DNA from: Puniceicoccales bacterium
GTDB taxonomy: Bacteria; Verrucomicrobiota; Verrucomicrobiia; Opitutales; JAIRLG01
Assembly: GCA_031288595.1 (NCBI GenBank)
Contig: JAITRB010000018.1
Location: 1 to 32,000, forward strand
Length of the DNA: 32,000 nt
Reading direction: 5' to 3'
Shown here: positions 488 to 28,295 of the stretch, piece after piece
Numbering within the stretch: position 1 is the stretch's first letter
Layout: each line of letters opens with the position of its first letter
Notes under the pieces: model-generated
What the model was told of the DNA's origin: nothing
The model's database searches: none
The model's input: only the letters and a program-made list of their open reading frames with translations
Position numbers and translations under genes: made by a program

Positions 488-575
488 GGACTGCCTTTGT
501 GCCGAAGCCCCCGAAGGGGGCTTCGGCAAGGCCCGCCGCAGGCGGGCTGCTTCCTTTGGAAGCCAAAGGCAGTCC
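488..575. repeat. Cloverleaf palindromic intergenic repeat, copy A (arm order long-GC-short)
   Basis: Read directly: outer stem ggactgcctttg/caaaggcagtcc. It encloses tgccgaagccccc-gaag-ggggcttcggca, gcccgcc-gca-ggcgggc and gcttcc-ttt-ggaagc. Confidence 0.85.
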
Positions 576-585
576 CAGAAATACG

Positions 586-658
586 CCGACCGCTTTCCCC
601 ATCTTTCATGGGAAGGCCCGCGCAGCGGGGGATTCCTCCGGAAGCCAAAGACAGCCGG
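586..658. repeat. Cloverleaf repeat, copy B (degenerate, tandem to A)
   Basis: It keeps gcccgc-gca-gcgggg, gattcc-tcc-ggaagc and the 3' outer half caaagacagccgg. The 5' outer half (ccgaccgcttt) is eroded and the long arm is reduced to cccat-ctttc-atggg. Confidence 0.6.
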
Positions 659-710
659 AAGCACACAAGGGCCTCCTCCCTCTCTTCCCTATTCCCACCT
701 TATTTCTTCG

Positions 711-2174
711 ATGAGATCCCAGATCCATCTCTTCAGTGCGAGCGAGCTTTCCCGGCTCCTTCGGGAGAGGAAAATTTCTTCCGAAGAACTCACACGGGCT
801 TTCATTGAGCGGACGGAACAGACGGAGGAGAGGATCCAGGCCTTTATCTCCTACGACGCGGAATACACCCTCACTCAGGCAAGGCTCTCGGACCGGCGCC
901 GCTCAGAGGGGAAAATCCATGGGCCCCTCGATGGCATTCCCGTCAGCATCAAGGATATCATCGCTGAGAAGGATCAACCCCTGACCTGTGGTAGCCGATT
1001 CATGGAGCAGTTCTGCAGTCCCTACGACGCGACGGTGATCCAAAAACTTCGCGGCCAAGGAGCCGTCCTCTGGGGTCGCTTGAACCTCGATGAGTTCGCC
1101 ATGGGCTCGTCGACGGAACATTCCGCCTTCCATGTTACCCATAATCCCTGGAATCCAGACTGTGTCCCAGGGGGCAGCAGTGGCGGCTGTGCAGCGGCGG
1201 CGGCGGCGCGGCAGACCCCTCTCGCTTTGGGCTCCGACACCGGCGGCTCGATCCGGCAACCAGCGGCCCTCTGCGGGGTCTGCGGACTGAAACCGACCTA
1301 TGGCCGTGTCAGCCGCTATGGGCTGAGCGCTTTTGCGAGCTCGCTGGATCAAATCGGCCCTATCGGGCGAACGGTAGAAGACATAGCATTGCTCCTGCAG
1401 GCCATTGCCGGCCATGACGAGTACGACTCGACCAGTTTGCGGGAAGAAGTTCCGGACTACCTCTTGGCTCTTCGGGAAAAATGTTCTCCCAAACGCATCG
1501 GCATTCCCAGGGAATATTTTGCCGAAGGTCTGGATGCCGAGGTGCGCGACAGCATCGAATCGGCCATCGAGTTCTATCGCTCTCAGGGGCACGAGATCAT
1601 CGAGCTCAGCCTACCCCATATGGATTACGCCATACCGGTCTACTACGTGGTGGCCACAGCCGAAGCGGCATCCAACCTAGCCCGTTTCGACGGGATCCGC
1701 TACACTCATCGCAGTGCCCATCACGATGCCATCGATATCTATTTCCGCTCGCGCAGCGAGGGATTCGGCCCCGAGGTCAAGCGGCGCATCATGCTCGGCA
1801 CCTACGTGCTCAGCAGTGGCTACTACGATGCCCAATACCTTCGGGCCCAGAAGGTCAGAACCCTGATCCGGCAGGACTTTCTCGAGGCTTTTAAGTCTGT
1901 GGATTTCCTGCTCACACCGACGAGCCCCACCACGGCCTTCAAAATGGGGGATAGATCGGCCAATCCCCTGGCGATGTACCTCAGTGACATCTATACCGTT
2001 TCGGCCAATCTGGCCGGTATTCCGGCCATTTCCATCCCCTGCGGATTTTCCACCAAAAATCTGCCGATCGGACTTCAAATCCTGGGCCCCCTTTTTTCCG
2101 AAGGGAAGCTCTTGCAGATGGCCTACGCCTTCGAGTCAGAGCACGATTTTTCTTCCCGCGAAGCTCCGCTCTGA
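711..2174 (+). CDS. gatA: Glutamyl-tRNA(Gln) amidotransferase subunit A
   Basis: Amidase signature region GGSSGGCAAAAAA...LGSDTGGSIRQPAA, with full-length similarity to GatA. ATG at 711 (MRSQIHLFSASEL) is chosen because the upstream part of ORF 480..2174 only translates repeat copies A and B. Confidence 0.93.
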   Translation: MRSQIHLFSASELSRLLRERKISSEELTRAFIERTEQTEERIQAFISYDAEYTLTQARLSDRRRSEGKIHGPLDGIPVSIKDIIAEKDQPLTCGSRFMEQFCSPYDATVIQKLRGQGAVLWGRLNLDEFAMGSSTEHSAFHVTHNPWNPDCVPGGSSGGCAAAAAARQTPLALGSDTGGSIRQPAALCGVCGLKPTYGRVSRYGLSAFASSLDQIGPIGRTVEDIALLLQAIAGHDEYDSTSLREEVPDYLLALREKCSPKRIGIPREYFAEGLDAEVRDSIESAIEFYRSQGHEIIELSLPHMDYAIPVYYVVATAEAASNLARFDGIRYTHRSAHHDAIDIYFRSRSEGFGPEVKRRIMLGTYVLSSGYYDAQYLRAQKVRTLIRQDFLEAFKSVDFLLTPTSPTTAFKMGDRSANPLAMYLSDIYTVSANLAGIPAISIPCGFSTKNLPIGLQILGPLFSEGKLLQMAYAFESEHDFSSREAPL

Positions 2175-2204
2175 TCTCAGGGTACCTGGAGCAATTGCCT
2201 CTTG

Positions 2205-2289
2205 CGCCGTCTTTGCAGGGATGAAAATAAACAATTTTCATCCCTGATGCCCGCTCCGCGGGCGATCTCTCCGAGATCCAAAGACGGCG
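2205..2289. repeat. Cloverleaf repeat, copy M (long-GC-short)
   Basis: Outer stem cgccgtctttg/caaagacggcg. Arms: cagggatgaaaat-aaaca-attttcatccctg, gcccgc-tcc-gcgggc, gatctc-tcc-gagatc. Confidence 0.85.
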
Positions 2290-2388
2290 AACTCGGACAC
2301 GAGCCCTTCCATCCCTCCTTCAAAAGGAGAAATTTAAAAGAACTCTGCTATCGCCAGAGGGCACGGGCCTTTTTCCCTAAAAGGGCGC

Positions 2389-3489
2389 ATGGATAGGCCT
2401 CCATCGGAGACAAAAGGGCAGGTGCTCGTCGCCATGTCCGGGGGCGTGGATAGTTCCGTGGCAGCCCTACTTCTACGGCAACAGGGCAGGGAAATTCTGG
2501 GTGCCTACATGCGCACCTGGCACAACGAGGATCAGCGGCAGCCGCTCGGCCACTGCCCCTGGGAGGAGGATCTACAGCAGGCCCGGAGCGTCGCCGAGAC
2601 CCTCCAAATCCCCTTTTCTGTCGTCAACATGATCGATCGCTACCGCCGATGGGTCGTAACGCCCCTCGTCGAGGGCTACCGGAATGGTCTGACCCCAAAT
2701 CCGGATATCCTCTGCAACCGACATATCAAATTCGGCTTCCTGGCCGACTACGCTCGAGAACTGGGCTATGCCGGTCTCGCTACCGGACACTACTGCCAAA
2801 AACGGACCCATGCCGATGCTTCCTGTGATCTGTTCGAAGGGGTCGATCCGAACAAGGATCAATCCTACTTCCTGGCCTATATCTCCCAATCCCAGCTGCA
2901 GTTCGCACAATTTCCAGTCGGCCATTTGAAAAAGCCCGACGTGCGCGCGCTGGCTGCAGAGGCGAATCTCCGCAATGCGGCGCGAAAGGATAGCCAGGGG
3001 ATCTGTTTCCTGGGCAAAGTCAAGATTCGGGATTTTCTGTCCCACTATATTCCCGACTCGCCCGGGCCCATCGTCGACCCTGAAGGACATATCCTGGGAG
3101 AGCACCGCGGACTCCATCAGTTCACCCTCGGGCAGCGCCACGGCATCCGCCTCCCGTCAAACCGAGATCACGAGCACTATGTCGTCGTGGCCAAGAATAG
3201 GGAAAAGAATCATCTCGTCGTGGCTCTGGAAGGCTCGGCCTCCGCGTTTCTCTTCCGCCGGAGATTCACCCTGCACCAGCTCCACTTCATCCACAAACGG
3301 ATAGAAAAGCCCTGCTGGCTCCTGGGTAAGCCGCGCCATCGGGATCCCTCGCAGAGCCTCTACTTCGAGCCTCTCGGCCCCAACAGCGCCGTCGTCGAAT
3401 TCCAAAACCCTCCGCGCGCCCTTGCCAGCGGACAGGTCCTCGCCCTCTACGATGAAAAATGCCTCCTAGGCGGAGGGATCTACGTTTAA
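2389..3489 (+). CDS. mnmA: tRNA 2-thiouridine(34) synthase MnmA
   Basis: N-terminal PP-loop VAMSGGVDSSVAA, then NPDILCN, DQSYFL and GICF motifs typical of MnmA/TrmU. 366 aa. Confidence 0.93.
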   Translation: MDRPPSETKGQVLVAMSGGVDSSVAALLLRQQGREILGAYMRTWHNEDQRQPLGHCPWEEDLQQARSVAETLQIPFSVVNMIDRYRRWVVTPLVEGYRNGLTPNPDILCNRHIKFGFLADYARELGYAGLATGHYCQKRTHADASCDLFEGVDPNKDQSYFLAYISQSQLQFAQFPVGHLKKPDVRALAAEANLRNAARKDSQGICFLGKVKIRDFLSHYIPDSPGPIVDPEGHILGEHRGLHQFTLGQRHGIRLPSNRDHEHYVVVAKNREKNHLVVALEGSASAFLFRRRFTLHQLHFIHKRIEKPCWLLGKPRHRDPSQSLYFEPLGPNSAVVEFQNPPRALASGQVLALYDEKCLLGGGIYV

Positions 3490-3845
3490 AAACGGACCAC
3501 AAAAGAGGCTCTTAAAACTAAACAAACAAATTCCGCTGAGAGAAAGCCTAATTATAAATATAAATTGCTTAAGAGAGGGCCCAAGATCACTTTCTAAGCC
3601 ATTTGTTCCTGAGTGGATATAGGCGATAAATTCTCAGGTTCCGGTATTTGAATTTACGACACTGCCCCTCATATACCAGTACAGCTCAAGCATCCACGTC
3701 CCAGTGACCCAAGTCTGCTTATAGGGATCCCAAATCTGATCTCCGTTGACCCGAACTCCGCCATCACGGAGTTCGCCTTCCCCGTTCTCTCGACGTTTGT
3801 GAAAGCATCGATGGGTTAAGCGTCTTCGTATCATCAGAGATGGCC

Positions 3846-4540
3846 TCATCTCCATCTCTGCCCTTGCCACTTGCTAGTATTTCCCCTTGCAATACCATCG
3901 CCTCCAGCGCCACTAATGGCAATTGCTGGAGTTGAACCGATGGCAGCTAGCCAGCCGAGGATCCGATATGGGCTCCCCCTGGATTCAGGAGCTTATCCAT
4001 CGTCGATCGAAACACTCCACGTGGCCATTGAAAAAGGAGATAAATCCCCCTCATCACCCTAGATATCCGTAGCAACATCCCACTTTCCGGAAGCAATGGT
4101 CCAGGCCATAGGTATAGGCGATCGGGTTCACTTCGGGAGACGCATCAGCATCTGGGTTCACTCCTGCTAGGGGCACGGCACTGACATGGAGCCAGGCGGC
4201 ACCCGTAGGCATGCCTCCGCCAGCATCGATGAGCACTTTAGGGACTTTGCCTCCTGCCATCTTTCCCCAACAGGCATCATCATTCCACAGAGAGACAGCC
4301 GCTTCATTGAGAACGCCCGCTCGAGCGAGTACCCTTGTCCAAGGATAAGCCACTATACCGTATCCACTCTCACTCCTGGACCTAGGGTCCCTGTCTCGCC
4401 GGAGAATCCGCTGCGATAATCGATAAATGCCAGCGCGATCTGCCGCATGTTGCTCGCTCCGCGCGCACGGTGGAAGTCCGAAGCCCCCCTTGTAGCAAGG
4501 GAATGAGGATGGCCGTAAGGATCGCGATGATCACGGGCAT
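3846..4540 (-). pseudogene. Decayed paralog of the adjacent prepilin-type (pseudopilin-like) gene
   Basis: Minus-strand pieces in three frames align with the intact neighbour. MPVIIAILTAILIPL lacks the GFTLxE cleavage motif. The other pieces are SNMRQIALAFIDYRSGF.., AYPWTRVLARAGVLNEAAVSLWNDD...NPIAYTYGLD, SGKWDVATDI-stop-GDEGGFISFFNGHVECFD, and a Gly/Ala-rich tail. There are at least two frameshifts and one in-frame TAG. Confidence 0.7.
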
Positions 4541-4553
4541 CCCCTCACTTCCC

Positions 4554-5231
4554 TCAACGTGAAGCCGCACTCTGCGTCGCGACTGGAGCGCTTCCCCCAG
4601 TAACGGTAGCCGCATCAATGGGACTCGTGACAGCAGACCCATCTGGGGCAACAAGTTTGCTTGCCGTGGTTTCAAACCATTCCACATGGCCATCGAGAAA
4701 AGCGACAAAGCCACCCGCATCCCCATAAACACCCTTAGAGGCATCCCAGTTTCCGGTTTCCAAATCCAACCCACGAGTCCAAGCGATCGGCGTCGTCGTG
4801 GCTGGGGCATTGGGATCCACACCAACCAACATCACCACGCTGGGGCCTGGATCAGTCCAATATCCATTGGAGGGCCAGCCGCTGCCGTTTTTGACAAATT
4901 TCGGAATATCCGTTTTCCCCTTCAACAGCGGATCATCCGTCCAGAAGTACACATTTGCCTCGTTGAGCACATTGGCCTTAGCCAACTCCAAGGCCCAATC
5001 GTAGTGCGATACTACCCTCGTAGGCATCGTCCGTTGATCCCCAAATGTATTGCTGTAATTCATATACGCCACCGCCAGTTGCCGCATGCTGTTCGAACCT
5101 CGCGTACGACGGGCGCTGTCGATCGCCTTTCGTACCGACGGAACAAGAATGGCCGAAAGGATAGCGATGATCGCGATCACCACCATTAACTCCATCAGTG
5201 TGAAGCCTTGTCCCCCAGATTTCTTCTCCAT
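4554..5231 (-). CDS. Prepilin-type N-terminal cleavage/methylation domain protein (type II secretion pseudopilin-like)
   Basis: MEKKSGGQ-GFTLMELMVVIAIIAILSAILVP is a class-III signal / N-methylation motif. The C-terminal GGFVAFLDGHVEWF motif is common in PVC-group pilin-like families. ATG at 5231 is preceded by ggagaggtg; the track start at 5240 is a GTG. Confidence 0.85.
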   Translation of the reverse strand: MEKKSGGQGFTLMELMVVIAIIAILSAILVPSVRKAIDSARRTRGSNSMRQLAVAYMNYSNTFGDQRTMPTRVVSHYDWALELAKANVLNEANVYFWTDDPLLKGKTDIPKFVKNGSGWPSNGYWTDPGPSVVMLVGVDPNAPATTTPIAWTRGLDLETGNWDASKGVYGDAGGFVAFLDGHVEWFETTASKLVAPDGSAVTSPIDAATVTGGSAPVATQSAASR

Positions 5232-5331
5232 AATACCCACCTCTCCAAATTCTGTAAAATCTATCAGCCCCGGTACGGGGCTGTTCTTTTCTAGTGTAGA
5301 GAATTGAATTTAACGAATATTCATACCGGCG

Positions 5332-6603: not shown

Positions 6604-6678
6604 CCACTGGCATCGGCAAATGAATTCTCTCCATCGATTCGGGAAATCGACAGCGGCTATTGCTACGGGTTTTGGTGT

Positions 6679-6776
6679 GCGCTGTCCTTTGGCTCCCGAA
6701 GGGAGCGCCCGCGCAGCGGGCCCCAGCGGAGAAAATCAAAGGGGCCCTTTGATTTTCTCCGCTGCAAAGACAGCGC
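6679..6776. repeat. Cloverleaf repeat, copy C (short-GC-long)
   Basis: Outer stem gcgctgtcctttg/caaagacagcgc (one bulged c). Arms: gctccc-gaa-gggagc, gcccgc-gca-gcgggc, cagcggagaaaatcaaagg-ggc-cctttgattttctccgctg. Confidence 0.85.
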
Positions 6777-6849
6777 CCCAAACACACAACACTCTCACTC
6801 CTCTCCCTCAGGACTTGTCGAACGGCTGCTATACTTATAACTCTCTTCC

Positions 6850-8226
6850 GTGATTCCATCAGCCAATGACAGTTCCTCCACCTGGGATACGGAAAAAATC
6901 TACAGCATTTCCTTCCTGACAGAGCAAATACAAGGCCTTCTGGACTCCCATATCCCCATGCTCTGGATCGGCGGCGAAGTCTCCAACTTCCGGCAGCAGA
7001 GCTCAGGCCATCTCTACTTCAGCCTCCAGGACGAGCGGAGCCAGATCGCCTGCGTTCTCTTCCGCGGCGATGCCCTGCAGCTCCGCTTCCCATTGGAAAA
7101 CGGAAAATCTATTATCTGCTACGGCAGCCTGGAGATCTATGCCCCGCGGGGTCAGTATCAGTGGATTGTACGCCACGTATTACCCTGCGGTACGGGGCAG
7201 CGGGATGCGGAATTCCAAAAACTCAAGGAGCGTTGCCGGAACGAAGGACTCTTCGATGCCGAGCGCAAGCGGCCGATCCCCCTCACGGCCTGTCCCATCG
7301 CTCTGCTCAGCTCCCCGACCGGTGCCGCACTGCAGGATTTTCTCCAAATCCTGCGCCGGAAGAACTGGCGAGGTGAGATCATCTTCTTCCCCTGCCGAGT
7401 GCAGGGCGATGAATCCGTCCAGGACTTTCTCCATAGTCTCTATCTGGCCCAGCAGTCTCCGGCTGAACTCATCGTCCTGGCCAGAGGCGGTGGCAGTGCT
7501 GAAGATCTTTGGGCCTTCAACTCCGAGGCTATCGTTAGAAAAATAGCTGATTGTTCCAAACCCATCATCTCCGCCATCGGTCATGAGACCGATTTCACTT
7601 TGGTCGACTTCGTAGCAGACCTGCGTGCCGAAACCCCCTCCGCCGCAGCGGAAATCATCGCGACGAATTATCAAAACGCCCGACAGCATTGGCGAGATTT
7701 AGAAGAACGGTTGACAGGAATTCTCGAAGAATACAAGCTCCGACAGCGGCAGCACTGGCAGTTTTTGCGACAACGCCTACAGCACGTCTCTCCCGAGCGG
7801 CTGATCGAGCACCGGCAGCACCAGCTCCAGCAGACCTCCCACCGATTTTTAGAAACCGCCCGCTTTACTCTCGCATCCAAAAGAGAAGGATTCCTGAGCC
7901 TTCAGCGGCGCTGGGAGAGCTATGACATCGGACGTAATCTCCGCAGCGGGTTTTTGATCGCCGAAAATTTTCAGGGAAAAATCCTCCGCCACCGTCATGA
8001 TGTCCCTCTGGGCAGTGAGCTGATCCTCCATTTCCAGGATGGCCCGCTGCAAGTTAGCAGCAGTGCCCCCTCGATAAGCTACCTCTCATCAGGGATAAGT
8101 AGTATGGATCAGATTCAAAGTCCTTCTCCCAGTCCTGGTGGTGGGGGAGCGATTCGAACGCTCGAAGGGGAAACCCCGACAGATTTACAGTCTGCACCCT
8201 TTAGCCTCTTGGATACCCCACCATGA
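6850..8226 (+). CDS. xseA: Exodeoxyribonuclease VII large subunit
   Basis: N-terminal OB-fold region (GEVSNFRQQSSGHLYFSLQDE), GGGSAEDLWAFN, ISAIGHETDFTL and ETPSAAAE motifs, then a coiled coil. GTG start at 6850. The last ~55 codons lie beyond the conserved C-terminus and overlap tRNA-Tyr antisense. Confidence 0.88.
   Translation: MIPSANDSSSTWDTEKIYSISFLTEQIQGLLDSHIPMLWIGGEVSNFRQQSSGHLYFSLQDERSQIACVLFRGDALQLRFPLENGKSIICYGSLEIYAPRGQYQWIVRHVLPCGTGQRDAEFQKLKERCRNEGLFDAERKRPIPLTACPIALLSSPTGAALQDFLQILRRKNWRGEIIFFPCRVQGDESVQDFLHSLYLAQQSPAELIVLARGGGSAEDLWAFNSEAIVRKIADCSKPIISAIGHETDFTLVDFVADLRAETPSAAAEIIATNYQNARQHWRDLEERLTGILEEYKLRQRQHWQFLRQRLQHVSPERLIEHRQHQLQQTSHRFLETARFTLASKREGFLSLQRRWESYDIGRNLRSGFLIAENFQGKILRHRHDVPLGSELILHFQDGPLQVSSSAPSISYLSSGISSMDQIQSPSPSPGGGGAIRTLEGETPTDLQSAPFSLLDTPP
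8136..8222 (-). tRNA. tRNA-Tyr (anticodon GTA), class II with long variable arm, CCA encoded
   Basis: The reverse complement reads ggtgggg-ta-tcca-agaggctaaa-gggt-g-cagac-tgtaaat-ctgtc-ggggtttccccttc-gagcg-ttcgaat-cgctc-ccccacc-a-cca. By memory of the E. coli sequence it is nearly collinear with E. coli tRNA-Tyr. Confidence 0.95.
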
Positions 8227-8365
8227 CCGGAATTTTTCTGAAGCTAGAGGCCCGTTGAGGCTTAGCAAGATAATTTTGTTCCATGGCCAGCTATGAGCTG
8301 CAGATGGGCGACCGAGTATCGTTGGGGAGGAGCGAAATTGCGAGAGGAGCAGGGCGGTGCTTGTG

Positions 8366-8461
8366 TTGCCGGCTTTGGCAGAGGAAGGCAGGGGCGCTGC
8401 CCCTGCCCTCCTCTGTGGCCCGCGTCGCGGGCCTGATTCCGCAGGAATCCAAAGCCGGCAA
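8366..8461. repeat. Cloverleaf repeat, copy D (long-GC-short)
   Basis: Outer stem ttgccggctttg/caaagccggcaa. Arms: cagaggaaggcagggg-cgct-gcccctgccctcctctg (1 mismatch), ggcccgc-gtc-gcgggcc, gattcc-gca-ggaatc. Confidence 0.85.
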
Positions 8462-8725
8462 ACGACAAAAATCCTCCCTATTTTTCCAATGAAAGAAAGC
8501 TCCACGAAACACCCAATTTCCCCATAAAGCCCCAGAAGACCAAAGGGTGTAAACCCCTACTCTTGCTATGGGGAGCTCGTTATCCCGTAAGTCCCAATAT
8601 CTACCCCAGGATAACACGATTAAAGCGAGCATATACGAAGGTGTATATTACCCCTCTCCATATGAGGCAGCCTGCGCAATTGTAGAGATGCCATGGGCAG
8701 AAGATAGATACCTCTGGATACGGAA

Positions 8726-10063: not shown

Positions 10064-10154
10064 GGCTGGCTTTACAAGAGACAAATGGCAGAAGGCCATT
10101 TGCCTCTTGCCGCCCGCGCAGCGGGCCCGATGCCGAAGGCATCAAAAGCCAGCC
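10064..10154. repeat. Cloverleaf repeat, copy E (long-GC-short)
   Basis: Outer stem ggctggcttt/aaagccagcc. Arms: caagagacaaatggc-agaag-gccatttgcctcttg (1 mismatch), gcccgc-gca-gcgggc, gatgcc-gaa-ggcatc. Confidence 0.85.
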
Positions 10155-10319: not shown

Positions 10320-10397
10320 TGGGGTGGCTAACCGGATTCGAACCGGTGACCCTCGGAACCACAATCCGATGCTCTAACCAGCTGAGCTACAGCCACC
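10320..10397 (-). tRNA. tRNA-His (anticodon GTG) with encoded G-1 and CCA
   Basis: The reverse complement reads g-gtggctg-ta-gctc-agctggtta-gagc-a-tcgga-ttgtggt-tccga-gggtc-accgg-ttcgaat-ccggt-tagccac-c-cca. The extra 5' G paired with the discriminator C is the tRNA-His hallmark. Confidence 0.95.
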
Positions 10398-11771: not shown

Positions 11772-11858
11772 TTCGCTGTCTTTGGATCCCGAAGGGATCG
11801 CTCGCGAAGCGAGCCCCAGGATGAAAAGCTTGCTTTTCATCCTGGCAAAGACAGCGAA
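11772..11858. repeat. Cloverleaf repeat, copy F (short-GC-long)
   Basis: Outer stem ttcgctgtctttg/caaagacagcgaa. Arms: gatccc-gaa-gggatc, gctcgc-gaa-gcgagc, ccaggatgaaaagc..gcttttcatcctgg. Confidence 0.85.
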
Positions 11859-12634: not shown

Positions 12635-12663
12635 ATACAATCCGCCAGTCCATTCCCCTAAAT

Positions 12664-15233: not shown

Positions 15234-15323
15234 CGCCTTAGGAGCCCGAAGGGCTCCTGTCCGCTCTGCGGACGGCGCTGGGGAAAAATAAAAAGCTTTT
15301 TATTTTTCCCCAGCGCCAAGGCG
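15234..15323. repeat. Cloverleaf repeat, copy G (short-GC-long; GCCTTG subfamily)
   Basis: Outer stem cgcctt(a)gg/ccaaggcg. Arms: gagccc-gaa-gggctc, gtccgc-tct-gcggac, cgctggggaaaaataaaaagc..gctttttatttttccccagcg. Confidence 0.8.
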
Positions 15324-16309: not shown

Positions 16310-16406
16310 GGCCGCCTTGAGAGCCCTTCGGGCTCTGGCCTGCTCCGCAGGCTGCGCTTGAGGAAAGCTAAAGGCCTTTTAGCTTTCCTCAAGCGCCAAG
16401 GCGGCC
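16310..16406. repeat. Cloverleaf repeat, copy H (short-GC-long; GCCTTG subfamily)
   Basis: Outer stem ggccgccttg/ccaaggcggcc. Arms: gagccc-ttc-gggctc, gcctgc-tcc-gcaggc, cgcttgaggaaagctaaaagg-cc-ttttagctttcctcaagcg. Confidence 0.85.
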
Positions 16407-17697: not shown

Positions 17698-17781
17698 CTG
17701 GCTTTGTAAGAGGGGAAGGGAAGACTTCCTTCCCCTCTTAAGGCCCGCTTCGCGGGCGATTCCTCCGGAATCCAAAGCCAG
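17698..17781. repeat. Cloverleaf repeat, copy I (long-GC-short)
   Basis: Outer stem ctggctttg/caaagccag. Arms: taagaggggaaggg-aaga-cttccttcccctctta (bulged), ggcccgc-ttc-gcgggc, gattcc-tcc-ggaatc. Confidence 0.85.
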
Positions 17782-19260: not shown

Positions 19261-19266
19261 ATCCCG

Positions 19267-19726: not shown

Positions 19727-19800
19727 TGCCCGATGGTGTAACGGTAGCACAACGGATTCTGGATCCGTTTGTCTAGGTTCGAATCCTAGTCGGGCAGCCA
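19727..19800 (+). tRNA. tRNA-Gln (anticodon CTG), CCA encoded
   Basis: tgcccga-tg-gtgt-aacggta-gcac-a-acgga-ttctgga-tccgt-ttgt-ctagg-ttcgaat-cctag-tcgggca-g-cca. Confidence 0.93.
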
Positions 19801-20109: not shown

Positions 20110-20221
20110 GGCGCGATGGCCTCTTTGCAAAGCAAAGGGGTGGCTTCCGCTCCGCAGGAGCGGAAGCCACTCGTGGAGAGGAGGCGCCAGCCGGCGCCTC
20201 CTCTCCACAGGCCATCGCGCC
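20110..20221. repeat. Divergent large cloverleaf palindrome, copy J
   Basis: 13-bp outer stem ggcgcgatggcct/aggccatcgcgcc. It encloses ctttgc-aaa-gcaaag, gtggcttccgctcc-gca-ggagcggaagccac and gtggagaggaggcgcc-agcc-ggcgcctcctctccac. Confidence 0.75.
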
Positions 20222-20263
20222 GACAATTGTTCAAGGAAATTCCCATCGAGCCAGGTCCCATGA

Positions 20264-21001: not shown

Positions 21002-21345
21002 CTCCTGATACCTCTCCACGTAAAGACCGCCTGCCCGGAAAATCATCTTAGCTCCTTCATTTTCCAGGCACTCCACCTCGGAATCCAATGGGGCATATTT
21101 CGCTCATACTGTAGCTAATCCTCGCCAAAGCAAGCCCCCTTCTCTCCCAAGACCCTTGACGAAGGTCCCAGTATGACCAGTATCTGAAAGAGGATTAGGC
21201 AGTTCATGAGAGCTTTACGGCGTTGTCTGAAATCCCAACTCCATCAACTGCAATATGGTCTTACGGGACTTGTCCGAGCTACGGCAGTTGCTGAGCAGCT
21301 TCCTCCTCCGAATGAATCGAGAGCTGCAGATGCCCGTATGAAAGC

Positions 21346-21588
21346 TGTCATGTGGCGAACAGCTGCGTTCGCTGTCTCGCCCGCATCGCGCTTCAAGTAC
21401 TTTCGTGGCTCATCCTCGACGGGATGACGATCCATCTCGATACCGCACTATGCGATTGTCTTTGCGATATTCTCAGAAATTTCCCAGGATCACTCTGTCT
21501 CATCTCCCATGACAAAACATTTATTCGATCCCTAGGGATCGAACATATATGGCGTATCGAGGATAAGAAACTCATTGGTCAGGATTAA
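21346..21588 (+). pseudogene. Relic of an ABC-F-type ATPase (signature-to-Walker-B/D-loop segment only)
   Basis: ESCHVANSCVRCLARIALQVLSWLILDGMTIHLD...FPGSLCLISHDKTFIRSLGIEHIWRIEDKKL is collinear with LSGG.R.R.ALARAL....LLLLDEPTNHLD....YPG.LL.ISHDR.FL......I..IE..KL. However, LSGG and DEPT are mutated and there is no Walker A or N-terminal domain. Confidence 0.45.
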
Positions 21589-21620
21589 AAATTTCCCCCA
21601 TTATTTTCGCATATCTTTTT

Positions 21621-22265: not shown

Positions 22266-22315
22266 GCCTGGATCGTGAGTCGGTGCCGAATTCCAGCGAT
22301 TTCACGGGCCTCTGC

Positions 22316-22408
22316 TTGGCTGGCTTTGCCTACCGGAAAGGCCTTCGGCCTTTCCGGTAGGCGGCCCGCTTCGCGGGCCCGATTTCTCCGAAATCGAAAG
22401 CCAGCCAA
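22316..22408. repeat. Cloverleaf repeat, copy K (long-GC-short)
   Basis: Outer stem ttggctggctttg/cgaaagccagccaa. Arms: cctaccggaaaggcc-ttcg-ggcctttccggtagg, ggcccgc-ttc-gcgggcc, gatttc-tcc-gaaatc. Confidence 0.88.
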
Positions 22409-22759
22409 CAGAATACCCTCACTTCTCCGGCAATCAAACCGGAGAAAAACTCACCTGAGAAAACCCTCAGGCGTTTTTGCTCCCTCCATTTGCCGTTGAC
22501 TCACCGTGGAATGTCCCAAAACCCTTTCCCGTGGAAACCTGTGATGGAGACCTGCGGCCCACGTCATTCCATCGGGAATTTTTCGAAAAAATCTCTCTGA
22601 AATCGAAGTGGATAGGGCCTGCTCTTGGGCTACTGGGGGCTTGTGCTGGCCCGGGCGATGCAGGTCAAGCGGAAGATCGATTCCGACGGCTATCCTCCCT
22701 TGGAGCAAGTTCGGGGATTTCTAAGCCAATTCTCCCACGGAAGACGTCACTTCTTCTCT

Positions 22760-23983
22760 ATGTCAAATTCCGGGACTGAGGAACTTTCCCTCTCTGAGCG
22801 CTCCCGTCTGACCCTTCGCTACGACACCCTCCGGCAGGCCTTCCAGGGTATTCTAGAGGCCGGTTTCAAAACCTATATCCTGCTCATCGCCATACGGGTC
22901 TTCCACATGGGTGCCTGGGAAAAATCCCTCCTCTCTTCCGCCGGTTTCGCCGGCCTGCTCTGTGCCCCTCTGGTCATGAAAGGGATGGCCCGTACCTCCT
23001 GGACGAGCATGCAGATCACTGCGCTCTACTTCTTCCTCGTCGCCGCCTGCTTCCTCATCGCTTCCCTAACTCAAGACGCGGGCCTTTACCTCGTCCTTCT
23101 CGTCGCCGCCCGATTCATCTACAAGCAGCAGATCCCCCTCATGATCGACGTCTACAGCCATAACTACGCGGCGGACGAGCGCGGTTCCAAACTGGGATTT
23201 TCCATGTTCTTCCTGGCGACGGTCAGCGTTTTCTTCTCCCTCCTGGCCGGCCAATGGCTCGACCGGCACTTGGACGCCTACCGCTGGATCCTCGTCCTCA
23301 TCGCCCTCTCTGCCCTCGGTAGCGCCCTCAGCTTTCTTAAAATTCCCTCCCGAAGGATCCCGAGCAGCTCAGGCCACCGCTGGGCCAACCTCAGCCTGCT
23401 CTGGAAGGACAAGCTCTTCACCGCCATCGTTCTCATCTGGGCCCTGGAGGGCATAGCCAACCAGATGACTATTCCCCTGCGGGTCGAGTACATCGCCCAC
23501 GAGCGCTACGGGCTCAATTTCTCCAATCACTGGGTCACCCTTCTGAGCTGCGTCATACCCTCCATCTTTCGCATCCTCGGCTCCCCGCTGTGGGGCTACC
23601 TCTTCGACCGCCTTTCCCTCGTTCAGATGAAGCTGTGGATCAATAGCCTGCTCCTCCTGGGAACCCTGGCCTACTTCTTCTCCTCGTCCCTGCTCGGCAT
23701 CCTCATCGGCTCCTGCTTCATCGGCATGGCCCATGGCGGCGGAGTCATCGCCTGGAGCCTCTGGGTCACGAAAATCGTTCCGGAAGAGTCCTGCTGCGAT
23801 TACCTCAGCCTCAGCGCAGCGGAATTCGGCTTGCGCAGCTTCATCTCCCCCTTCATCGGCTATGCCCTGCTGGAAGGGACGCAATCCTTGCCCTGCGTCG
23901 TCGCTATCGCCGTGCTCCTGATTTCCCTATCCTCGCTCGGATTTTGGCTCATCCGCCATCATGAGCGCTTGCGCCCCTCCTAA
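22760..23983 (+). CDS. MFS-type transporter
   Basis: About 12 hydrophobic segments with no soluble domain. The start is uncertain; ATG 22760 is chosen and the ORF opens at 22625. Confidence 0.72.
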   Translation: MSNSGTEELSLSERSRLTLRYDTLRQAFQGILEAGFKTYILLIAIRVFHMGAWEKSLLSSAGFAGLLCAPLVMKGMARTSWTSMQITALYFFLVAACFLIASLTQDAGLYLVLLVAARFIYKQQIPLMIDVYSHNYAADERGSKLGFSMFFLATVSVFFSLLAGQWLDRHLDAYRWILVLIALSALGSALSFLKIPSRRIPSSSGHRWANLSLLWKDKLFTAIVLIWALEGIANQMTIPLRVEYIAHERYGLNFSNHWVTLLSCVIPSIFRILGSPLWGYLFDRLSLVQMKLWINSLLLLGTLAYFFSSSLLGILIGSCFIGMAHGGGVIAWSLWVTKIVPEESCCDYLSLSAAEFGLRSFISPFIGYALLEGTQSLPCVVAIAVLLISLSSLGFWLIRHHERLRPS

Positions 23984-24022
23984 AATCTCTCCAGAATCGG
24001 GTCTAGATATCCTGGGGATTTT

Positions 24023-26509
24023 ATGAAAATCGACCTGAAATGGTTGAAACGCCACGTGGACATTCCGGTTTCCGCCGCGGAGCTGCTTGAGATTTTCCCG
24101 AAGCTCGGGATGGAGGTGGAGGCGAGCCACATCCGCGGCATGGAGTTCCAGCCCACCCTGGTCGTGGGCGAAATCATCGACATTGCGGCCCATCCCCAAG
24201 CCGATCGCCTGCAGGTCTGTCAGGTCAGGGTCGACGAAGGAAAGCCAAGGACCATCGTCTGTGGGGCGAAGAATTTCAAACGGGGAGACCGCGTGCCAGT
24301 CGCCCTGCCCGGTACCCTCCTGCCGGAAGGCTTCAAGATCGAGGCCCGCGAACTTCGCGGCATCCGCTCGGAAGGCATGATGTGCAGCGCTCGAGAACTG
24401 GGTATTTCCGATGAGCACGAAGGGCTTCTCATCTTGTCGGGGAATCCCAGCATTGGGACAGCCATCCAAGAGCTCTTCTCTTTGGAAGAGGCCGGTTTTG
24501 AAATCGAGACGACGGCGAATCGCGGCGAGCTCCTGAGCCACCTGGGAGTGGCCCGAGACTTGGCCGCGTTTTTTAGAAAGCCGCTGCGGGAAGAGGCCTT
24601 TCCGATCCCCATAGCTCCCTACCCCTCGGCATTGGCGGGTGGCCTTAAGCAAGAACTCATCCTTCAATCGGAAGAAGCGCCCTACTACTGCCTCTTCGAA
24701 ATCCGCGATCTTCGGGTGTGCGAAAGTCCGGACTGGCTTCAGCAGGACCTGAAGGCCATCGGCCTCAGGCCGATCAATAACGTCGTCGACCTCACGAACT
24801 GGATCCTCTTCGACTCCGGCCAGCCACTCCACGCCTTCGATGCCGATGTAGTGTGGGGCAATAGCCTCTATGTCCGGCCGTCTTGGGAGGGAGAGACTAT
24901 CCAGACCCTCGACGGACAGCAACGCTCGCTCGAGAAAGGGGTACTCGTCATCGCCGATGAGGACTCTGCTCTGTCCATTGCCGGCATCATGGGCGGAACA
25001 TCCTCAGCCATCCGGCCAGATACCTGCCACATTTTCCTCGAAAGTGCCTACTTTCGTCCTGCCAGCATCCGGCGTAGCAGCAAATGGCTCGGCCTGCGCA
25101 GCGACAGTTCCTACCGCTTCGAGCGCGACATCGACCCGGGCCGGACACTCGCAGCTGGCCAATGGGCCGCGCGGATGATCCTGCAGGTTTGCGGCGGAAC
25201 GCTGGTGGGCTGCCGCGTTTCGGGTCGGCCTCCACGGGAGAGGCGGGTCATCGAACTCACGCCTTCATGGGTGGCGGAGCGCTGTGGCTGCCCCATTGCT
25301 CTCGAGAGCGTGGCTGAAAATTTAAAAGCGCTCGGCTATGGGGTCGATCAGGCCCAGCTGCCCTGGAAGGTGGAAGTGCCCAGCTGTCGCGCCGATGTGC
25401 AGCGCCCCATCGACCTAGTCGAGGAATTTTTGAGAATCTACGGCAATGAAAGGATTCCCCTCTCAGCACCTTCAACCCCCGTCTACCATCGGGAAGACAC
25501 AGCGGCGGCCATCTATTTCCGCGAAGTGGCCGATTATCTCTGCCACCGCGGTGCCGTCGAGGCTTGCCACTCCTCCTTCCGCTCCGAAGCGGAAGCAGGC
25601 TTTGGGGAGAAAAATTTCCAAATGCTCCGAATCGAAAATCCCAGTGTGGAGAATCAAAGCCACCTGCGCCTCAGCCTCATTCCCGGACTGCTGGATACGC
25701 TGTCCTACAACCTGCAGAGCGGCCATGAAGTCCCGGAGCTCTTCGAGAACGGACATGTCTTCATCCCTCACGAGGGAAAATTATGGGAAGTCTACTCGAC
25801 GGCCTATATTCAAGCACTCGGTTTCCAGCGGCGGCACTGGGAGAAGCTCCCAGCTCCTGGGCTGATGAGACTCAAGGCTATGGCTCTATCGATGGCCTCC
25901 ATCGCCCAGATCTCGGAAGAGATTCTCCTGGGAAAAGGAGCAGAGCCGAGCGGCTTGTGGCAGGAGGAGAACAGCTGGCACTGCGGAAACCTCCTGGAGA
26001 AGCACTACCGTATTCAGCTCGGCATCCTCAACCCGGCTGGCTGTTCCCGGGAATTGCCCTATCCCGTCGCCGCTGTGGAGATCTGCCTCCTGCCACAGCA
26101 CTTTGAGAAGACAAGTCGCGTCGAGCCGCGCTTCCGCCCCTTCAGCCTCTATCCCAGAGCTTCGCGGGACTTGGCCCTCATGCTGGACCGCTCCCTGCCG
26201 GCCGAAACCGTGCGCCGGGAGGTTTTGCGGCTGGCCAGGCGCGCGGCTGGGCGGCACTTCGAGGTCCAAGAGGTGGAGATATTCGATATCCACGAAGGAG
26301 AAAATCTCCCTGCGGGGAAGAAAAGCCTCGCGCTAGCCATCGATTTCTATTCCGAGCAGCGCACGCTCCGAGAATCGGAGGTGCAACACGCCTTCGAGCT
26401 GCTCCAACGCTTCATCCTTCGGGAAACTCCCTACGAAATTCGCTGCGATAGGGAACACGAAAGCTCCCTGCAGATGAAAGCGATCCCTCATGAAGATGGA
26501 GGGAGATAG
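24023..26509 (+). CDS. pheT: Phenylalanine--tRNA ligase beta subunit
   Basis: N-terminal MKIDLKWLKRHV, a tRNA-binding OB domain (HPQADRLQVCQVRV...CGAKN), B3/4 and B5 domains, and a C-terminal FDX-ACB domain. 828 aa. Confidence 0.94.
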   Translation: MKIDLKWLKRHVDIPVSAAELLEIFPKLGMEVEASHIRGMEFQPTLVVGEIIDIAAHPQADRLQVCQVRVDEGKPRTIVCGAKNFKRGDRVPVALPGTLLPEGFKIEARELRGIRSEGMMCSARELGISDEHEGLLILSGNPSIGTAIQELFSLEEAGFEIETTANRGELLSHLGVARDLAAFFRKPLREEAFPIPIAPYPSALAGGLKQELILQSEEAPYYCLFEIRDLRVCESPDWLQQDLKAIGLRPINNVVDLTNWILFDSGQPLHAFDADVVWGNSLYVRPSWEGETIQTLDGQQRSLEKGVLVIADEDSALSIAGIMGGTSSAIRPDTCHIFLESAYFRPASIRRSSKWLGLRSDSSYRFERDIDPGRTLAAGQWAARMILQVCGGTLVGCRVSGRPPRERRVIELTPSWVAERCGCPIALESVAENLKALGYGVDQAQLPWKVEVPSCRADVQRPIDLVEEFLRIYGNERIPLSAPSTPVYHREDTAAAIYFREVADYLCHRGAVEACHSSFRSEAEAGFGEKNFQMLRIENPSVENQSHLRLSLIPGLLDTLSYNLQSGHEVPELFENGHVFIPHEGKLWEVYSTAYIQALGFQRRHWEKLPAPGLMRLKAMALSMASIAQISEEILLGKGAEPSGLWQEENSWHCGNLLEKHYRIQLGILNPAGCSRELPYPVAAVEICLLPQHFEKTSRVEPRFRPFSLYPRASRDLALMLDRSLPAETVRREVLRLARRAAGRHFEVQEVEIFDIHEGENLPAGKKSLALAIDFYSEQRTLRESEVQHAFELLQRFILRETPYEIRCDREHESSLQMKAIPHEDGGR

Positions 26510-27788
26510 CATGGGGGCGATGGAGGAGCACTCCTGTCAACGGACGGCCTGGTTCGTATGGTTGGCTGCCGTCACCTTTTACGGCTATGAGTTCTTCGTG
26601 CGCGTCGCCCCGGGCAGCATGTTCCAGGAGATGCAGCGGAGCTACGGGGTCACGGCGGGGCTTTTCGGGTTCGCTTCTGGTACCTACTACTATATCTATG
26701 CCCCTATCCAAATCATCGCCGGTGCATTTTTCGACCGCTTCGGCGGGAGAAAGGTACTCCTGCCGGCCAGCCTCTGCGTGGCGCTCGGCTGCGCCTGCGT
26801 CCTGCTACCCCTACCCTCTCTGGGCCTCTTTGCCCTGGGGAGATTGCTCATGGGCCTGGGTTCCGGCTTTGGCTTCATCGGGGTCATGTATCTGGCCACC
26901 GTATGCTTTTCCAAGAGAAAGCTGTCCCTCATCTCCGGCCTGACCACCGCTATAGGATTCCTGGGCGCCATTCTGACCCTGCAGTACATCCCCCGGCTCG
27001 TCGAACGCATCGGCTGGCAGTCCTGTTGGTTCGGCGCCAGCATTTTCGGCCTGCTGTCGGCTGCCCTTCTGGGTATCGCCATCCCTCGCTCGCCTCGCCC
27101 CAAAACTGAGCAGCAGGACTCCCATTTCCAAGAAGAAGGGCCTTCTTTTCTCACGGGGCTCTGGCAGGTGCTGAAAAACCCCCAGACCTGGGTCATCGGT
27201 GGCATCGCCGGCGTGCTCTACGCCACACCGACTGTCTTCGGCGACCTGTGGGGGAATGCTTATTTTCGGAACGTAGCCCAGGCATCCAACGAAAGTGCCG
27301 GCCAGAGCGTGGCCATGCTCTACCTCGGCTGGTTTCTCGGGGCCCCGTTCTTCGGCTGGCTCTCGGACAGAACGCGGAAGAAAAAGATACTTCTCCAGGT
27401 CGCGACTCTGCTCTGCGGCCTGCTGCTGTGTCTCTTCCTCTATGGCGATGCTTCCCTAAATACCCTGCGGATTTGGCTCCTGCTCATCGGCTTTTTCGGA
27501 ACGCCCGAGGTCGCCTGCTTCACGGCCTCCATCGAAAACAATCCGAGCCATGCCAGTGGCAGTGCGGTAGCGGTGGTCAATATGATCGTAATGCTCCTAG
27601 GGGGACTCACCCAGCCCCTTGTGGGATGGATCGTCGAGATCCTGTCCTCCTCCGGCATCGGGCAGAACACCGGGACGGCCGGCATCCACGAGCTCCGCCT
27701 CGCCCTCGGTCTCCTGCCCCTTCTCAGTTTCCTCGGATTCATCCTGTGCTTTTTCTACGACGAGAAGACCGAGGAGCAGCATCCGTAG
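26490..27788 (+). CDS. MFS transporter
   Basis: 12-TM pattern with the MFS loop motif FFDRFGGRKVLL between TM2 and TM3. The first ATG overlaps the pheT 3' end by 20 nt; alternative starts are at 26511 and 26520. Confidence 0.82.
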   Translation: MKMEGDSMGAMEEHSCQRTAWFVWLAAVTFYGYEFFVRVAPGSMFQEMQRSYGVTAGLFGFASGTYYYIYAPIQIIAGAFFDRFGGRKVLLPASLCVALGCACVLLPLPSLGLFALGRLLMGLGSGFGFIGVMYLATVCFSKRKLSLISGLTTAIGFLGAILTLQYIPRLVERIGWQSCWFGASIFGLLSAALLGIAIPRSPRPKTEQQDSHFQEEGPSFLTGLWQVLKNPQTWVIGGIAGVLYATPTVFGDLWGNAYFRNVAQASNESAGQSVAMLYLGWFLGAPFFGWLSDRTRKKKILLQVATLLCGLLLCLFLYGDASLNTLRIWLLLIGFFGTPEVACFTASIENNPSHASGSAVAVVNMIVMLLGGLTQPLVGWIVEILSSSGIGQNTGTAGIHELRLALGLLPLLSFLGFILCFFYDEKTEEQHP

Positions 27789-27849
27789 GAAGCTTTCGAT
27801 TGCCAGATGGAGAATGAGCCCTATCCTCCTCTCTGAGAACTAAGGGAAG

Positions 27850-28191
27850 ATGGGAACAGTTCGAAATTCCAAGCTCTTCGCGGCGCTTCTGGCCAGCCTC
27901 CTCTGTCTACCCAGTCTCGAAGGAACAGCCCGCCCATACCGATCCTCACCACCGCCCCCTGCGTCGAGCAACGACTTTTTTCGAAAATACTCCTGCCGCT
28001 ACACCCCTTTCGACCCTTCCACGGCCCGACCGGCTCCGGCTCGATTCCGCAACAACACGGCCACTGCTCATCCCCTTCCCCCGGCCAATTCGAAGCCCTT
28101 GAAGCTGCAGCGGATCAACCCTTCCTCCTCACGGCCCTCCCAGAGGCCCGGCCAACCCGTCCCTAGCTTGTCCGCCGGAATGGCCCCCTAG
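27850..28191 (+). CDS. Hypothetical small secreted Pro/Ser-rich protein
   Basis: ATG preceded by aagggaag, with a signal-peptide-like N-terminus MGTVRNSKLFAALLASLLCLPSLEG. The rest is low-complexity and no homolog is recognised. Confidence 0.4.
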   Translation: MGTVRNSKLFAALLASLLCLPSLEGTARPYRSSPPPPASSNDFFRKYSCRYTPFDPSTARPAPARFRNNTATAHPLPPANSKPLKLQRINPSSSRPSQRPGQPVPSLSAGMAP

Positions 28192-28199
28192 GCCTTCTG

Positions 28200-28295
28200 C
28201 CGCTGTCTTTGGATTCCGCAGGAATCCGCCCGCTACGCGGGCCGCAAGGGGCGAAAAAGAAAAGAATTTTTTTTCGCCCCTTGCAAAGACAGCGG
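28200..28295. repeat. Cloverleaf repeat, copy L (short-GC-long)
   Basis: Outer stem ccgctgtctttg/caaagacagcgg. Arms: gattcc-gca-ggaatc, gcccgc-tac-gcgggc, caaggggcgaaaaa-gaaaagaattt-tttttcgccccttg. Confidence 0.88.

Follow-up and report, generated by a model that had tools for sequence, protein, structure and literature searches.

Palindromic intergenic repeats with a four-way-junction fold in uncultured Puniceicoccales: probably a DNA repeat superfamily of the REP/REPIN/MITE kind

In the present study, we analysed a family of intergenic palindromic elements in 32,000 nucleotides of DNA from a Puniceicoccales bacterium of the Verrucomicrobiota (contig JAITRB010000018.1, positions 1 to 32,000; this whole 32-kb stretch is called the window). 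The elements are ~85–110 bp long, and each consists of an inverted-repeat outer stem of 10–20 bp around three hairpins. The results indicated that they probably (roughly 60%) represent a high-copy, non-autonomous superfamily of palindromic DNA repeats of the REP/REPIN/MITE kind with a four-way-junction fold. A preliminary description, made from the letters of the window, had proposed thirteen copies of a conserved four-way-junction family, and this architecture was borne out by the folds, by their z-scores and by strong covariation. The superfamily is not a member of any named family, and it differs from REPINs in its ground-state fold and in REP tags.

Fold, copies and subfamilies of the element

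RNA folding showed that 12 of the thirteen stretches fold alike, into a closing stem of 6–13 bp and a long, a GC and a short hairpin, each simple and separated from the next by 0–2 unpaired bases. The folding energies of these 12 elements ranged from -54 to -103 kcal/mol. Compared with 200 dinucleotide shuffles per element, their z-scores were -7.2 to -15.5 and no shuffle equalled them; the 12 thus fold better than the shuffled controls. With DNA parameters, a mirror-image fold was obtained on either strand, and the energies of the two strands were equal within 0.6 kcal/mol. The thirteenth stretch, 586–658, had no fold of its own (z +0.3) and is the 3' part of a larger, interrupted host element at 455–659. 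Accordingly, all thirteen coordinates of the preliminary description correspond to real features, but not to thirteen independent copies.

We then searched the window, with filters off, using a covariance model that was derived from 97 copies of four genomes. The model returned the 11 canonical copies with E-values of 1e-14 to 1e-19, two weaker matches at 20110–20221 (E 4e-5) and 586–658 (E 6e-4), and no others in the 32 kb. Because exactly the sites described before were recovered, the list of 13 sites is complete and correctly placed. The core sequence pattern matched eight of the window copies vs 0.00 expected. The elements occupy ~3.9% of the window. According to a gene map made by Pfam and tRNA searches, none of them lies inside a credible coding sequence, as had been claimed, and every spacer longer than 200 bp carries a copy except 3490–4553 and 21089–21620, which agrees with the earlier account. 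The copies in the window are as follows (z, fold z-score; E, covariance-model E-value).

455–659, plus strand: composite; host element, older and partly decayed (outer stem TTCGGCTGT/ACAGCCGGAA; arms of the long hairpin TCCCATGAAAAATGG/CCATCTTTCATGGGA)
487–576, plus strand: canonical copy nested in the apex of the host long hairpin, outer stem GGGACTGCCTTTG; z -8.5, 69.1 bits, E 2.5e-14
2205–2289, plus strand: canonical copy in the co-directional spacer from gatA to mnmA; z -9.1 (RNA) and -9.3/-10.9 (DNA strands), E 9.6e-15
6679–6776, minus strand: canonical copy in the middle of the divergent glyA/xseA promoter spacer, 76 and 74 nt from the start codons; z -8.7, E 2.2e-15
8366–8461, plus strand: canonical copy between the tRNA-Tyr/xseA end and the alr end; z -8.3, E 2.1e-16
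10064–10154, plus strand: canonical copy between the alr start and tRNA-His; z -8.2, E 8.9e-15
11772–11858, minus strand: canonical copy in the convergent spacer of lptF/G and the TPR gene, with a rare GCTCGC/GCGAGC hairpin; z -8.8, E 6.2e-15
15234–15323, minus strand: canonical copy in the divergent spacer of the mraY-like and MBL genes; z -8.9, E 1.5e-16
16310–16406, minus strand: canonical copy in the spacer from the MBL gene to dgk; z -9.1, E 2.4e-17
17698–17781, plus strand: canonical copy upstream of hisS; z -7.2, E 5.8e-16
20110–20221, minus strand: subfamily E, outer stem GGCGCGATGGCC, hairpins of 36, 35 and 15 nt, the last CTTTGC-NNN-GCAAAG; z -15.5, E 3.7e-5
22316–22408, plus strand: canonical copy of subfamily B, outer stem GCTGGCTTT, in the spacer from the acyltransferase gene to the MFS gene; z -12.1, E 3e-17
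28200–28295, minus strand: canonical copy 9 nt past the stop of the open reading frame (ORF) 27850–28191 and upstream of mutL; z -9.1, best model match, 88.3 bits, E 7.6e-19

The covariation of the paired positions was evaluated in an alignment of 97 sequences, and the anatomy and the loops were evaluated in 125 copies. Standard pairs filled 91.4% of the cells of the alignment vs 73.4% in shuffles, changes on both sides occurred at 38 of the 42 pairs, and the covariation score was 0.399 vs 0.131 in shuffles and at most 0.13 with slid partners. The outer stem, 10–20 bp long, was 96.9% paired, so that the copies carry terminal inverted repeats of the kind by which MITEs are recognised. The short hairpin was 99.3% paired, with three pair types at two positions. 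Its sequence had been given as GATTCC, which is one of at least five variants (GATTCC, GATCCC, GAGCCC, GCTCCC and GATGCC), all perfectly covarying, and not the sole consensus. In the outer, GC and short helices, G.U pairs were limited to 0–4 per column of 97. Over all copies, the mismatches comprised 46 G.T and 34 A.C, without strong strand asymmetry. The strict Watson–Crick pairing, the equality of the two strands and the scarcity of G.U indicated that the element is a DNA palindrome rather than an RNA selected on one strand.

The loops of the small hairpins were ~95% triloops of the form C-NNN-G; in the "long-GC-short" reading, GNA loops (GAA, GCA, GGA and GTA) outnumbered their complements by 111 to 66, a count uncorrected for relatedness. 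The stem extended 4–5 bp past the conserved core, and these pairs varied by lineage yet stayed complementary. Beyond the extended stem, pairing was at background, and the 5' flank was T-rich and the 3' flank A-rich on both strands. An origin of the outermost pairs from a pre-existing hairpin of the target was rejected as a general rule, since these pairs track element lineages.

It was further observed that at least six or seven sequence-unrelated subfamilies keep this one architecture; subfamilies D–G share it with A–C and have no sequence in common with them.

Subfamily A: outer stem GCTGTCTTTG
Subfamily B: outer stem GCTGGCTTT
Subfamily C: outer stem GGTTTGCCGCCTTT; long hairpin conserved and slightly asymmetric, with a bulged base and a GGGA loop
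Subfamily D: outer stem GGGGCCCCGGGAC; three short hairpins, ~76 nt
Subfamily E: outer stem GGCGATGGCC
Subfamily F: outer stem CGCGCGACGGCC
Subfamily G: a singleton

The copy at 20110–20221 had been regarded as a divergent member of the main family. Its four-way junction was confirmed, but it belongs to a separate recurring subfamily with the outer stem GCGATGGCC, whose relatives lie at L035:71, L061:4055 and L065:4279 (L-numbers denote related loci, which cover 10–15% of each related metagenome-assembled genome, MAG).

Several subfamilies showed features of their own. In the related genome Pcl387_bin38 (bin38), subfamily-B copies lie in a ~210-nt repeat (L080 7050–7260, L102 3987–4198, L092 3769–3957, L097 7095–7300 and L065 2002–2214) with the left flank TTTATTTGACGACGCTTTC and, in some copies, GTCGTCAAAT further to the right, which suggests a longer composite unit or a linked promoter-like motif. 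As a hypothesis for the family, a larger unit was rejected: the ~210-nt repeat flanked by ATTTGACGAC/GTCGTCAAAT was found in bin38 around copies of subfamily B, and none was found in the window. The 76-nt junction of subfamily D, GGGGCCCCGGGAC, is contained in a ~215-nt repeat (L024 1044–1256, L024 3546–3760, L065 4412–4628 and L070 3264–3460) that is 84–94% identical between loci. At L037 2662–2767 and L027 596–691, the long hairpin of subfamily C, ATGCAAAGC-GGGA-GCTTTCAT with one bulged base, is flipped relative to the other copies, which suggests hairpin inversion. In addition, copies of subfamily C (e.g., L011 3896–3996, L054 5742–5850 and L075 104–211) carry a conserved, non-palindromic extension of ~25 nt, CAAACCCGCCnGTCGAnCGGAGACG, past the 3' outer arm; the unit of subfamily C is therefore asymmetric beyond the junction.

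Distribution, nesting and upkeep of the copies

The distribution of the family was examined by pattern, structure and covariance-model scans. The primary-sequence pattern scan, with the short hairpin, the GC hairpin and CTTT as its core, was run on one genome per GTDB species and returned at least 104 stretches. About half of them came from the Puniceicoccales genomes bin38, Pcl387_bin136 (bin136) and Ct408_bin121, and the other matches, among those listed, were single matches in GC-rich genomes of other phyla. The same pattern gave at least 120 matches in metagenomes, all of them, among the matches listed, chance singles without a real junction, and three chance matches in a viral collection of limited size. 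A structure-only scanner, which required an outer stem with three simple hairpins, no more and no fewer, and allowed up to 16 unpaired nt, found 113 elements in 349 kb of Puniceicoccales loci (1 per 3.1 kb) vs two weak ones in 384 kb of other loci. Across 100 loci, covariance-model matches at E ≤ 1e-3 occurred in Puniceicoccales only, and none occurred in ~50 loci of other phyla bearing the same primary-sequence pattern.

The density was ~1 per 3 kb in four related Puniceicoccales MAGs, and copies were sparser in two further relatives. On contigs of more distant relatives, reached via HisS homologues, copies were present at 54% and 59% HisS identity (L228/L229 and L233), and none were found in 37 kb from relatives at 48–50% identity. 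The copies are thus not confined to the window, and the family belongs to one clade of uncultured Puniceicoccales. The earlier statement that no named family fits was upheld: in Rfam searches (cmscan) at the gathering threshold and at E ≤ 1, no family explained the elements, and the matches obtained were chance matches of miRNA models to single hairpins. In the literature, no described cloverleaf or four-way bacterial repeat was found beyond the REPIN papers.

One of the distant relatives without elements (HisS 48% identical) encodes a TLC-type ATP/ADP translocase at L230 281–1804. Translocases of this type are a hallmark of intracellular energy parasites, and this gene hints at a host-associated lifestyle in the group, as far as can be read from sequence. 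The bacterium of the window is itself probably host-associated.

The copies were found to interrupt one another. The canonical copy at 487–576 is the younger one; it was inserted into the host element at 455–659 and split its long hairpin. The host retains a GC hairpin at 615–629 and a short hairpin at 630–645, with one mismatch in each. The region 453–660 folded as a nested structure (-120.8 kcal/mol), and when the insert was removed, the four-way junction of the host was restored. Sister copies of the insert are present in bin38 at L043:1477, L097:377, L064:854 and L057:3853. A second nested insertion at a hairpin apex was found in the bin38 ortholog of the copy at 15234 (L057 3835–4031), where another element of the same orientation sits at the short-hairpin triloop. 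As a third case of tip insertion, the canonical element at L058 1600–1745 of bin38 holds an unrelated, non-palindromic insert of 53 nt at its long-hairpin apex. Survivorship could explain this pattern of hairpin-tip insertions, since only insertions into loops spare the structure.

Near-identical copies were observed at unrelated loci of one genome, and presence and type also varied between genomes at corresponding places. One copy downstream of mnmA occurs in bin38 only (L043:1477). The alr–tRNA-His spacer of bin136 is shorter (~146 nt) and lacks a counterpart of the copy at 10064–10154, and its acyltransferase–MFS spacer holds an element of another subfamily in the opposite orientation (L091:4596). 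The nested insertions and the radiations of the subfamilies show that the elements are mobile.

The window is syntenic with bin38 and bin136, so that copies could be compared place by place. The window and bin136 share copies of the same place and orientation in the glyA/xseA, xseA/alr and lptG/TPR spacers; the window and bin38 share copies in the glyA/xseA and lptG/TPR spacers and in four more (bin38 is uncovered at xseA/alr). The copy at 6679 has counterparts of the same place and orientation at L043:4983 in bin38 and L001:1796 in bin136, and the ortholog of the copy at 8366 in bin136 (L017:7011) is 79% identical. The copy at 11772 is 94% identical to its ortholog in bin38 and 78% in bin136. 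All three members of this lptG/TPR trio share the rare GCTCGC/GCGAGC variant, which argues for true orthology, and in the bin136 member the closing pair of the short hairpin changed from G-C to A-T. Compared with the bin38 orthologs, the copy at 15234 is 93% identical, the copy at 16310 differs from the one at the same site by five double, pair-preserving changes, and the copy at 17698 is 92% identical, with a flanking spacer that is unalignable.

Overall, element identity was 78–94% between the window and bin38 and 72–79% between the window and bin136. The corresponding values for the four-fold degenerate sites of glyA and the phosphoglucomutase gene were 72–74% and ~40%, respectively. Among the ortholog pairs, 15 base pairs had changed on both sides and stayed Watson–Crick, 14 were one-sided mismatches and 4 were G.T; changes affected 31% of unpaired positions vs ~8% of paired nucleotides. 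These results demonstrated that copies are maintained in place. The cause may be selection, or templated correction between the arms together with gene conversion; some of the identity of the conserved modules may be family consensus.

Gene context, mechanism and rival explanations

The Pfam searches assigned the window genes to gatC, gatA, mnmA, a prepilin-type protein, glyA, xseA, alr, lptF/G, a TPR protein and a phosphoglucomutase-family protein; a GT4/MraY-like transferase, an MBL hydrolase, dgk, hisS, an Fe-S assembly protein and sfsA; and an acyltransferase, two MFS transporters, pheT, mutL and a 7TM-HD receptor. The tRNA genes are tRNA-Tyr (8136–8222), tRNA-His (10320–10396) and tRNA-Gln (19727–19800).

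Some gene calls next to the repeats need correction. The longest gatA ORF (480–2174) reads through the composite element. Its Amidase domain begins at residue 103 (~nt 786), and therefore the true gatA start lies downstream of 659. The ORF 8291–8632 (minus strand), which crosses the copy at 8366–8461, has no Pfam match. The tRNA-Tyr (GTA, minus strand, with a long variable arm according to ARAGORN) adjoins the same copy; in Rfam, 8136–8222 gave only a sub-threshold tRNA-Sec match. This tRNA overlaps the final 90 nt of the xseA ORF (6850–8226), the stop or call of which is doubtful, and a 140-nt stretch at the tRNA is 92% identical to bin136 vs ~69% for the remaining xseA.

Other observations concern the spacers. 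The long spacers without elements have a GC content of 0.53 (3490–4553) and 0.48 (21089–21620) vs 0.57. The segment 3934–4576 is 74% identical to bin38 sequence beside a prepilin-type (N_methyl) gene and may be a decayed paralogue. The 92-bp spacer between glyA and the prepilin-type gene is free of repeats and contains, at 5265–5283 (CAGCCCCGGTACGGGGCTG), the sole convincing bidirectional terminator-like hairpin of the first 20 kb, with T-rich tails on both strands. In bin38, four tandem units of ~27 nt (GGGATTTACGCCTAGATTTTAGGTGAA) lie downstream of mnmA (L043 1260–1400), and none lie in the orthologous spacer of the window. In bin136, there is ~2.8 kb of additional DNA between sfsA and the acyltransferase gene.

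The orientation of neighbouring genes in the related loci was derived from ORF-based gene calls in which the elements were masked as ORF barriers. Copies occupied 23 of 40 convergent spacers (57%), 19 of 46 divergent spacers (41%) and 48 of 151 co-directional spacers, and their orientation relative to transcription was 27:33, without bias. In the window, 10 of the 12 copies follow one or more genes or tRNAs, and those at 6679 and 15234 are centred between the start codons of divergent genes. The number of terminator-like sites in the window was that expected by chance (22 vs 21.7).

The folds showed that either DNA strand, or a transcript of either, takes up one common four-way junction, and the copies showed that the family has reached ~1 copy per 2.5–3 kb of intergenic DNA and has split into sequence-unrelated subfamilies. 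A new copy can enter the apical loop of a hairpin already present, which gives a nested element. The constraint acts on the Watson–Crick complementarity of the DNA and not on an RNA of one strand, and after insertion copies stay intact in place far longer than neutral sequence. As a mechanism, we propose that DNA folded as a single strand or as a cruciform is recognised by a trans-acting enzyme that reads structure, most likely an HUH/Y1 transposase (RAYT or IS200-like) that works on single-stranded DNA at replication forks, and that insertion favours exposed loops. The upkeep of the copies may be due to selection by the host for a structural role of the DNA, such as the binding of a protein specific for junctions or cruciforms or the handling of supercoils in the manner suggested for BIMEs, to palindrome-templated correction of the arms, or to both. 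Effects on transcripts, such as 3'-end protection and insulation, would be secondary.

A number of observations weigh against such a mobile, DNA-level repeat. There is no clean empty site: in the filled/empty contrasts (10064–10154 vs bin136; L043:1477), the spacers have diverged beyond alignment. Target-site duplication was not evident at either nested insertion, the boundaries of which are ambiguous by a few bases. A tblastn search with IS200 and RAYT probes, a weak test over a small part of each genome, gave no match below E 0.7 in ~380 kb. No repeat longer than 300 bp, and none of IS length with matching ends, was found within any partial MAG sample. The GTAG and CGTC tags of REP are absent from the 97-copy consensus, and GTA is one of many triloops (10/125). 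Gene conversion among copies, or repeated insertion at hot spots, could account without selection for part of the excess of conservation over synonymous sites. The gene calls of the related loci are crude ORF calls. Finally, convergent spacers were somewhat richer in copies than divergent ones, and on the transcribed strand G.U mismatches outnumbered A.C (15 vs 8); a minor contribution at the RNA level is thus possible.

We also considered that the repeats are architectural elements selected by the host. According to this explanation, a cruciform or Holliday-junction mimic would be extruded under negative supercoiling and kept because the cell uses it: junction-specific or nucleoid proteins would bind or process it, or it would absorb supercoils between transcription units. 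Mobility would only be how the copies arrived. The near-saturation of window spacers longer than 200 bp agrees with such a role, as does the retention of positions in bin136, where four-fold sites are saturated (~40%) and the elements are 72–79% identical and fully paired. The strict Watson–Crick pairing on both strands, the presence of copies in divergent promoter spacers, where transcription is unlikely, and the finding that the interrupted host copy at 455–659 is also the decaying one point in the same direction. However, two long spacers (3490–4553 and 21089–21620) have no copy, and distant relatives have few or none, so that the element is not essential to the lineage. In addition, the effects of selection could be imitated by palindrome-templated correction or by gene conversion, and both a partner protein and cruciform extrusion in vivo are conjectural. 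Host selection as the primary explanation appears unlikely, though it deserves to be taken seriously.

A related idea is that the four-way junction itself is the functional unit of a system so far undescribed, either in a new class of transposition of single-stranded DNA that reads branched junctions instead of simple hairpins or as Holliday-junction-like punctuation between transcription units that the host maintains. An enzyme that reads branched junctions would explain why sequence-unrelated subfamilies have the same architecture. We put this forward tentatively, as a speculation with the odds against it.

The preliminary description had named a mobile element, a DNA cruciform or protein-binding site, and a structured RNA module as candidate roles. 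The first two fit the present results, and the last is disfavoured as a general explanation. As an RNA-level cis element, the repeat would be transcribed within 3' or intergenic untranslated regions (UTRs) and form a branched structure that blocks 3'–5' exonucleases, or that terminates or insulates transcription in a genome with few canonical terminators, and its palindromy would permit use in either direction. The REP/BIME elements of E. coli stabilise upstream mRNA. Consistent with such a role, most window copies (10 of 12) lie downstream of a gene or tRNA, occupancy is highest in convergent spacers (57%), and the transcribed strand has the above-mentioned excess of G.U; moreover, with canonical terminator-like sites no commoner than chance, the genome may need some other signal for 3' ends. 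Other features do not fit. A Rho-independent terminator was rejected, since the 3' flank lacks a U-tract and is rich in A on both strands, orientation is unbiased (27:33) and 19 of 46 divergent spacers are occupied, with two such copies in the window between divergent start codons. The well-aligned helices contain hardly any G.U, an unusual feature if an RNA were under selection; the loops are triloops rather than the tetraloops typical of RNA; and no Rfam family matches. In the present sample, the comparison suggested that copies in divergent spacers are maintained no less well than copies in 3' UTRs. The repeats are unlikely to act generally as terminators or as stabilisers of 3' UTRs, and we regard an RNA-level cis element as a doubtful explanation for the family.

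A multicopy structured small RNA or a retron- or tRNA-like family, in which the outer stem would be a1/a2 or acceptor-like, the short hairpins msr-like and the long hairpin msd-like, is highly improbable and already largely refuted: the topology brings to mind retron noncoding RNAs and, loosely, a cloverleaf, but the neighbours are housekeeping genes without an adjacent reverse transcriptase or partner gene, Rfam gave no retron or tRNA match at E ≤ 1, ARAGORN called only the three true tRNAs, the strands are equivalent, no promoter-like flank is conserved, and there are hundreds of copies per genome.

Relation to known systems and significance

The repeats of the REP/REPIN/MITE kind proposed here were compared with known systems. 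REPINs show compensatory changes, random extragenic placement and association with RAYTs, and a branched "clover" fold has been discussed for them (PMC3116915). The preliminary statement that the element is unlike REP-type repeats was thus overstated, since its behaviour matches that of REPINs closely. Like REPIN/REP-BIME elements with RAYT (TnpA-REP, HUH Y1) in Pseudomonas and E. coli, the copies are high in number, extragenic, ~100 nt long and foldable palindromes (PMC3116915, PMC3479197). Compensatory changes, near-random extragenic placement, several families per genome and the decay of disrupted copies or singlets are also shared with REPINs. The differences lie in the fold and the tags. 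Instead of the long hairpin formed by two inverted REP copies, the element forms a stable four-way junction with three different hairpins, in which the GC and short hairpins differ and stand side by side at the junction and the outer arms have no internal palindrome. In REP/BIME, the unit of repetition is an imperfect, GC-rich palindrome of 20–40 nt, and the genome contains a RAYT gene that typically has REPs on its flanks. Here, the repeating, covarying unit is the whole junction of 85–110 nt, of which only the 15–19 nt GCCCGC-NNN-GCGGGC arm is REP-like. REP palindromes carry an adjacent conserved GTAG or CGTC tetranucleotide (PMC3733652), and this element has no such tag. Its host is a member of the Verrucomicrobiota and not of the Proteobacteria, and divergent spacers are well populated.

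Similar to MITEs such as the Correia elements of Neisseria, ERIC and the palindromic elements of Rickettsia, the repeats are short, non-coding, dispersed and foldable, with terminal inverted repeats and differences in presence and absence. MITEs have conserved tips of their terminal inverted repeats, direct target-site duplications and a recognisable parent insertion sequence (IS). Unlike them, the outermost stem pairs of the present element covary between lineages, the two nested insertions show no evident target-site duplication, and 380 kb of sequence revealed no parent IS. We know of no MITE counterpart of the three-hairpin junction.

Insertion sequences that target palindromes offer a further comparison: IS1397 and ISKpn1 insert in BIME palindromic units, and IS110-family elements insert in REPs. 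As in those cases, new DNA is found at apical loops (455–659 in the window, L057 3835–4031 and L058 1600–1745). Unlike in those cases, the inserted DNA of the nested cases is another copy of the repeat and not an autonomous IS. The mobile GC clusters of fungal mitochondria are likewise small, GC-rich, multi-hairpin, intergenic, mobile and non-coding, with structure more conserved than sequence (PMC4478555). GC clusters and double-hairpin elements differ in that they are organellar, consist of two hairpins that do not close into a four-way junction, and are unrelated in sequence. The double-hairpin elements of Allomyces belong beside the mobile GC clusters.

Bacterial intergenic palindromes (REP, BIME, REPIN and MITE) are usually simple hairpins, and it is debated what is selected in them and by whom. 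In the present family, the conserved object is a shape, the closed four-way junction, which is retained in position as synonymous sites reach saturation. Repeats of this sort break up metagenome assemblies of these bacteria and create spurious N-terminal extensions of ORFs, e.g., ORF 480–2174. The family extends dense REP-like repeats to the Verrucomicrobiota and provides a natural test case for DNA enzymes that read structure and for selfish spread versus host use.

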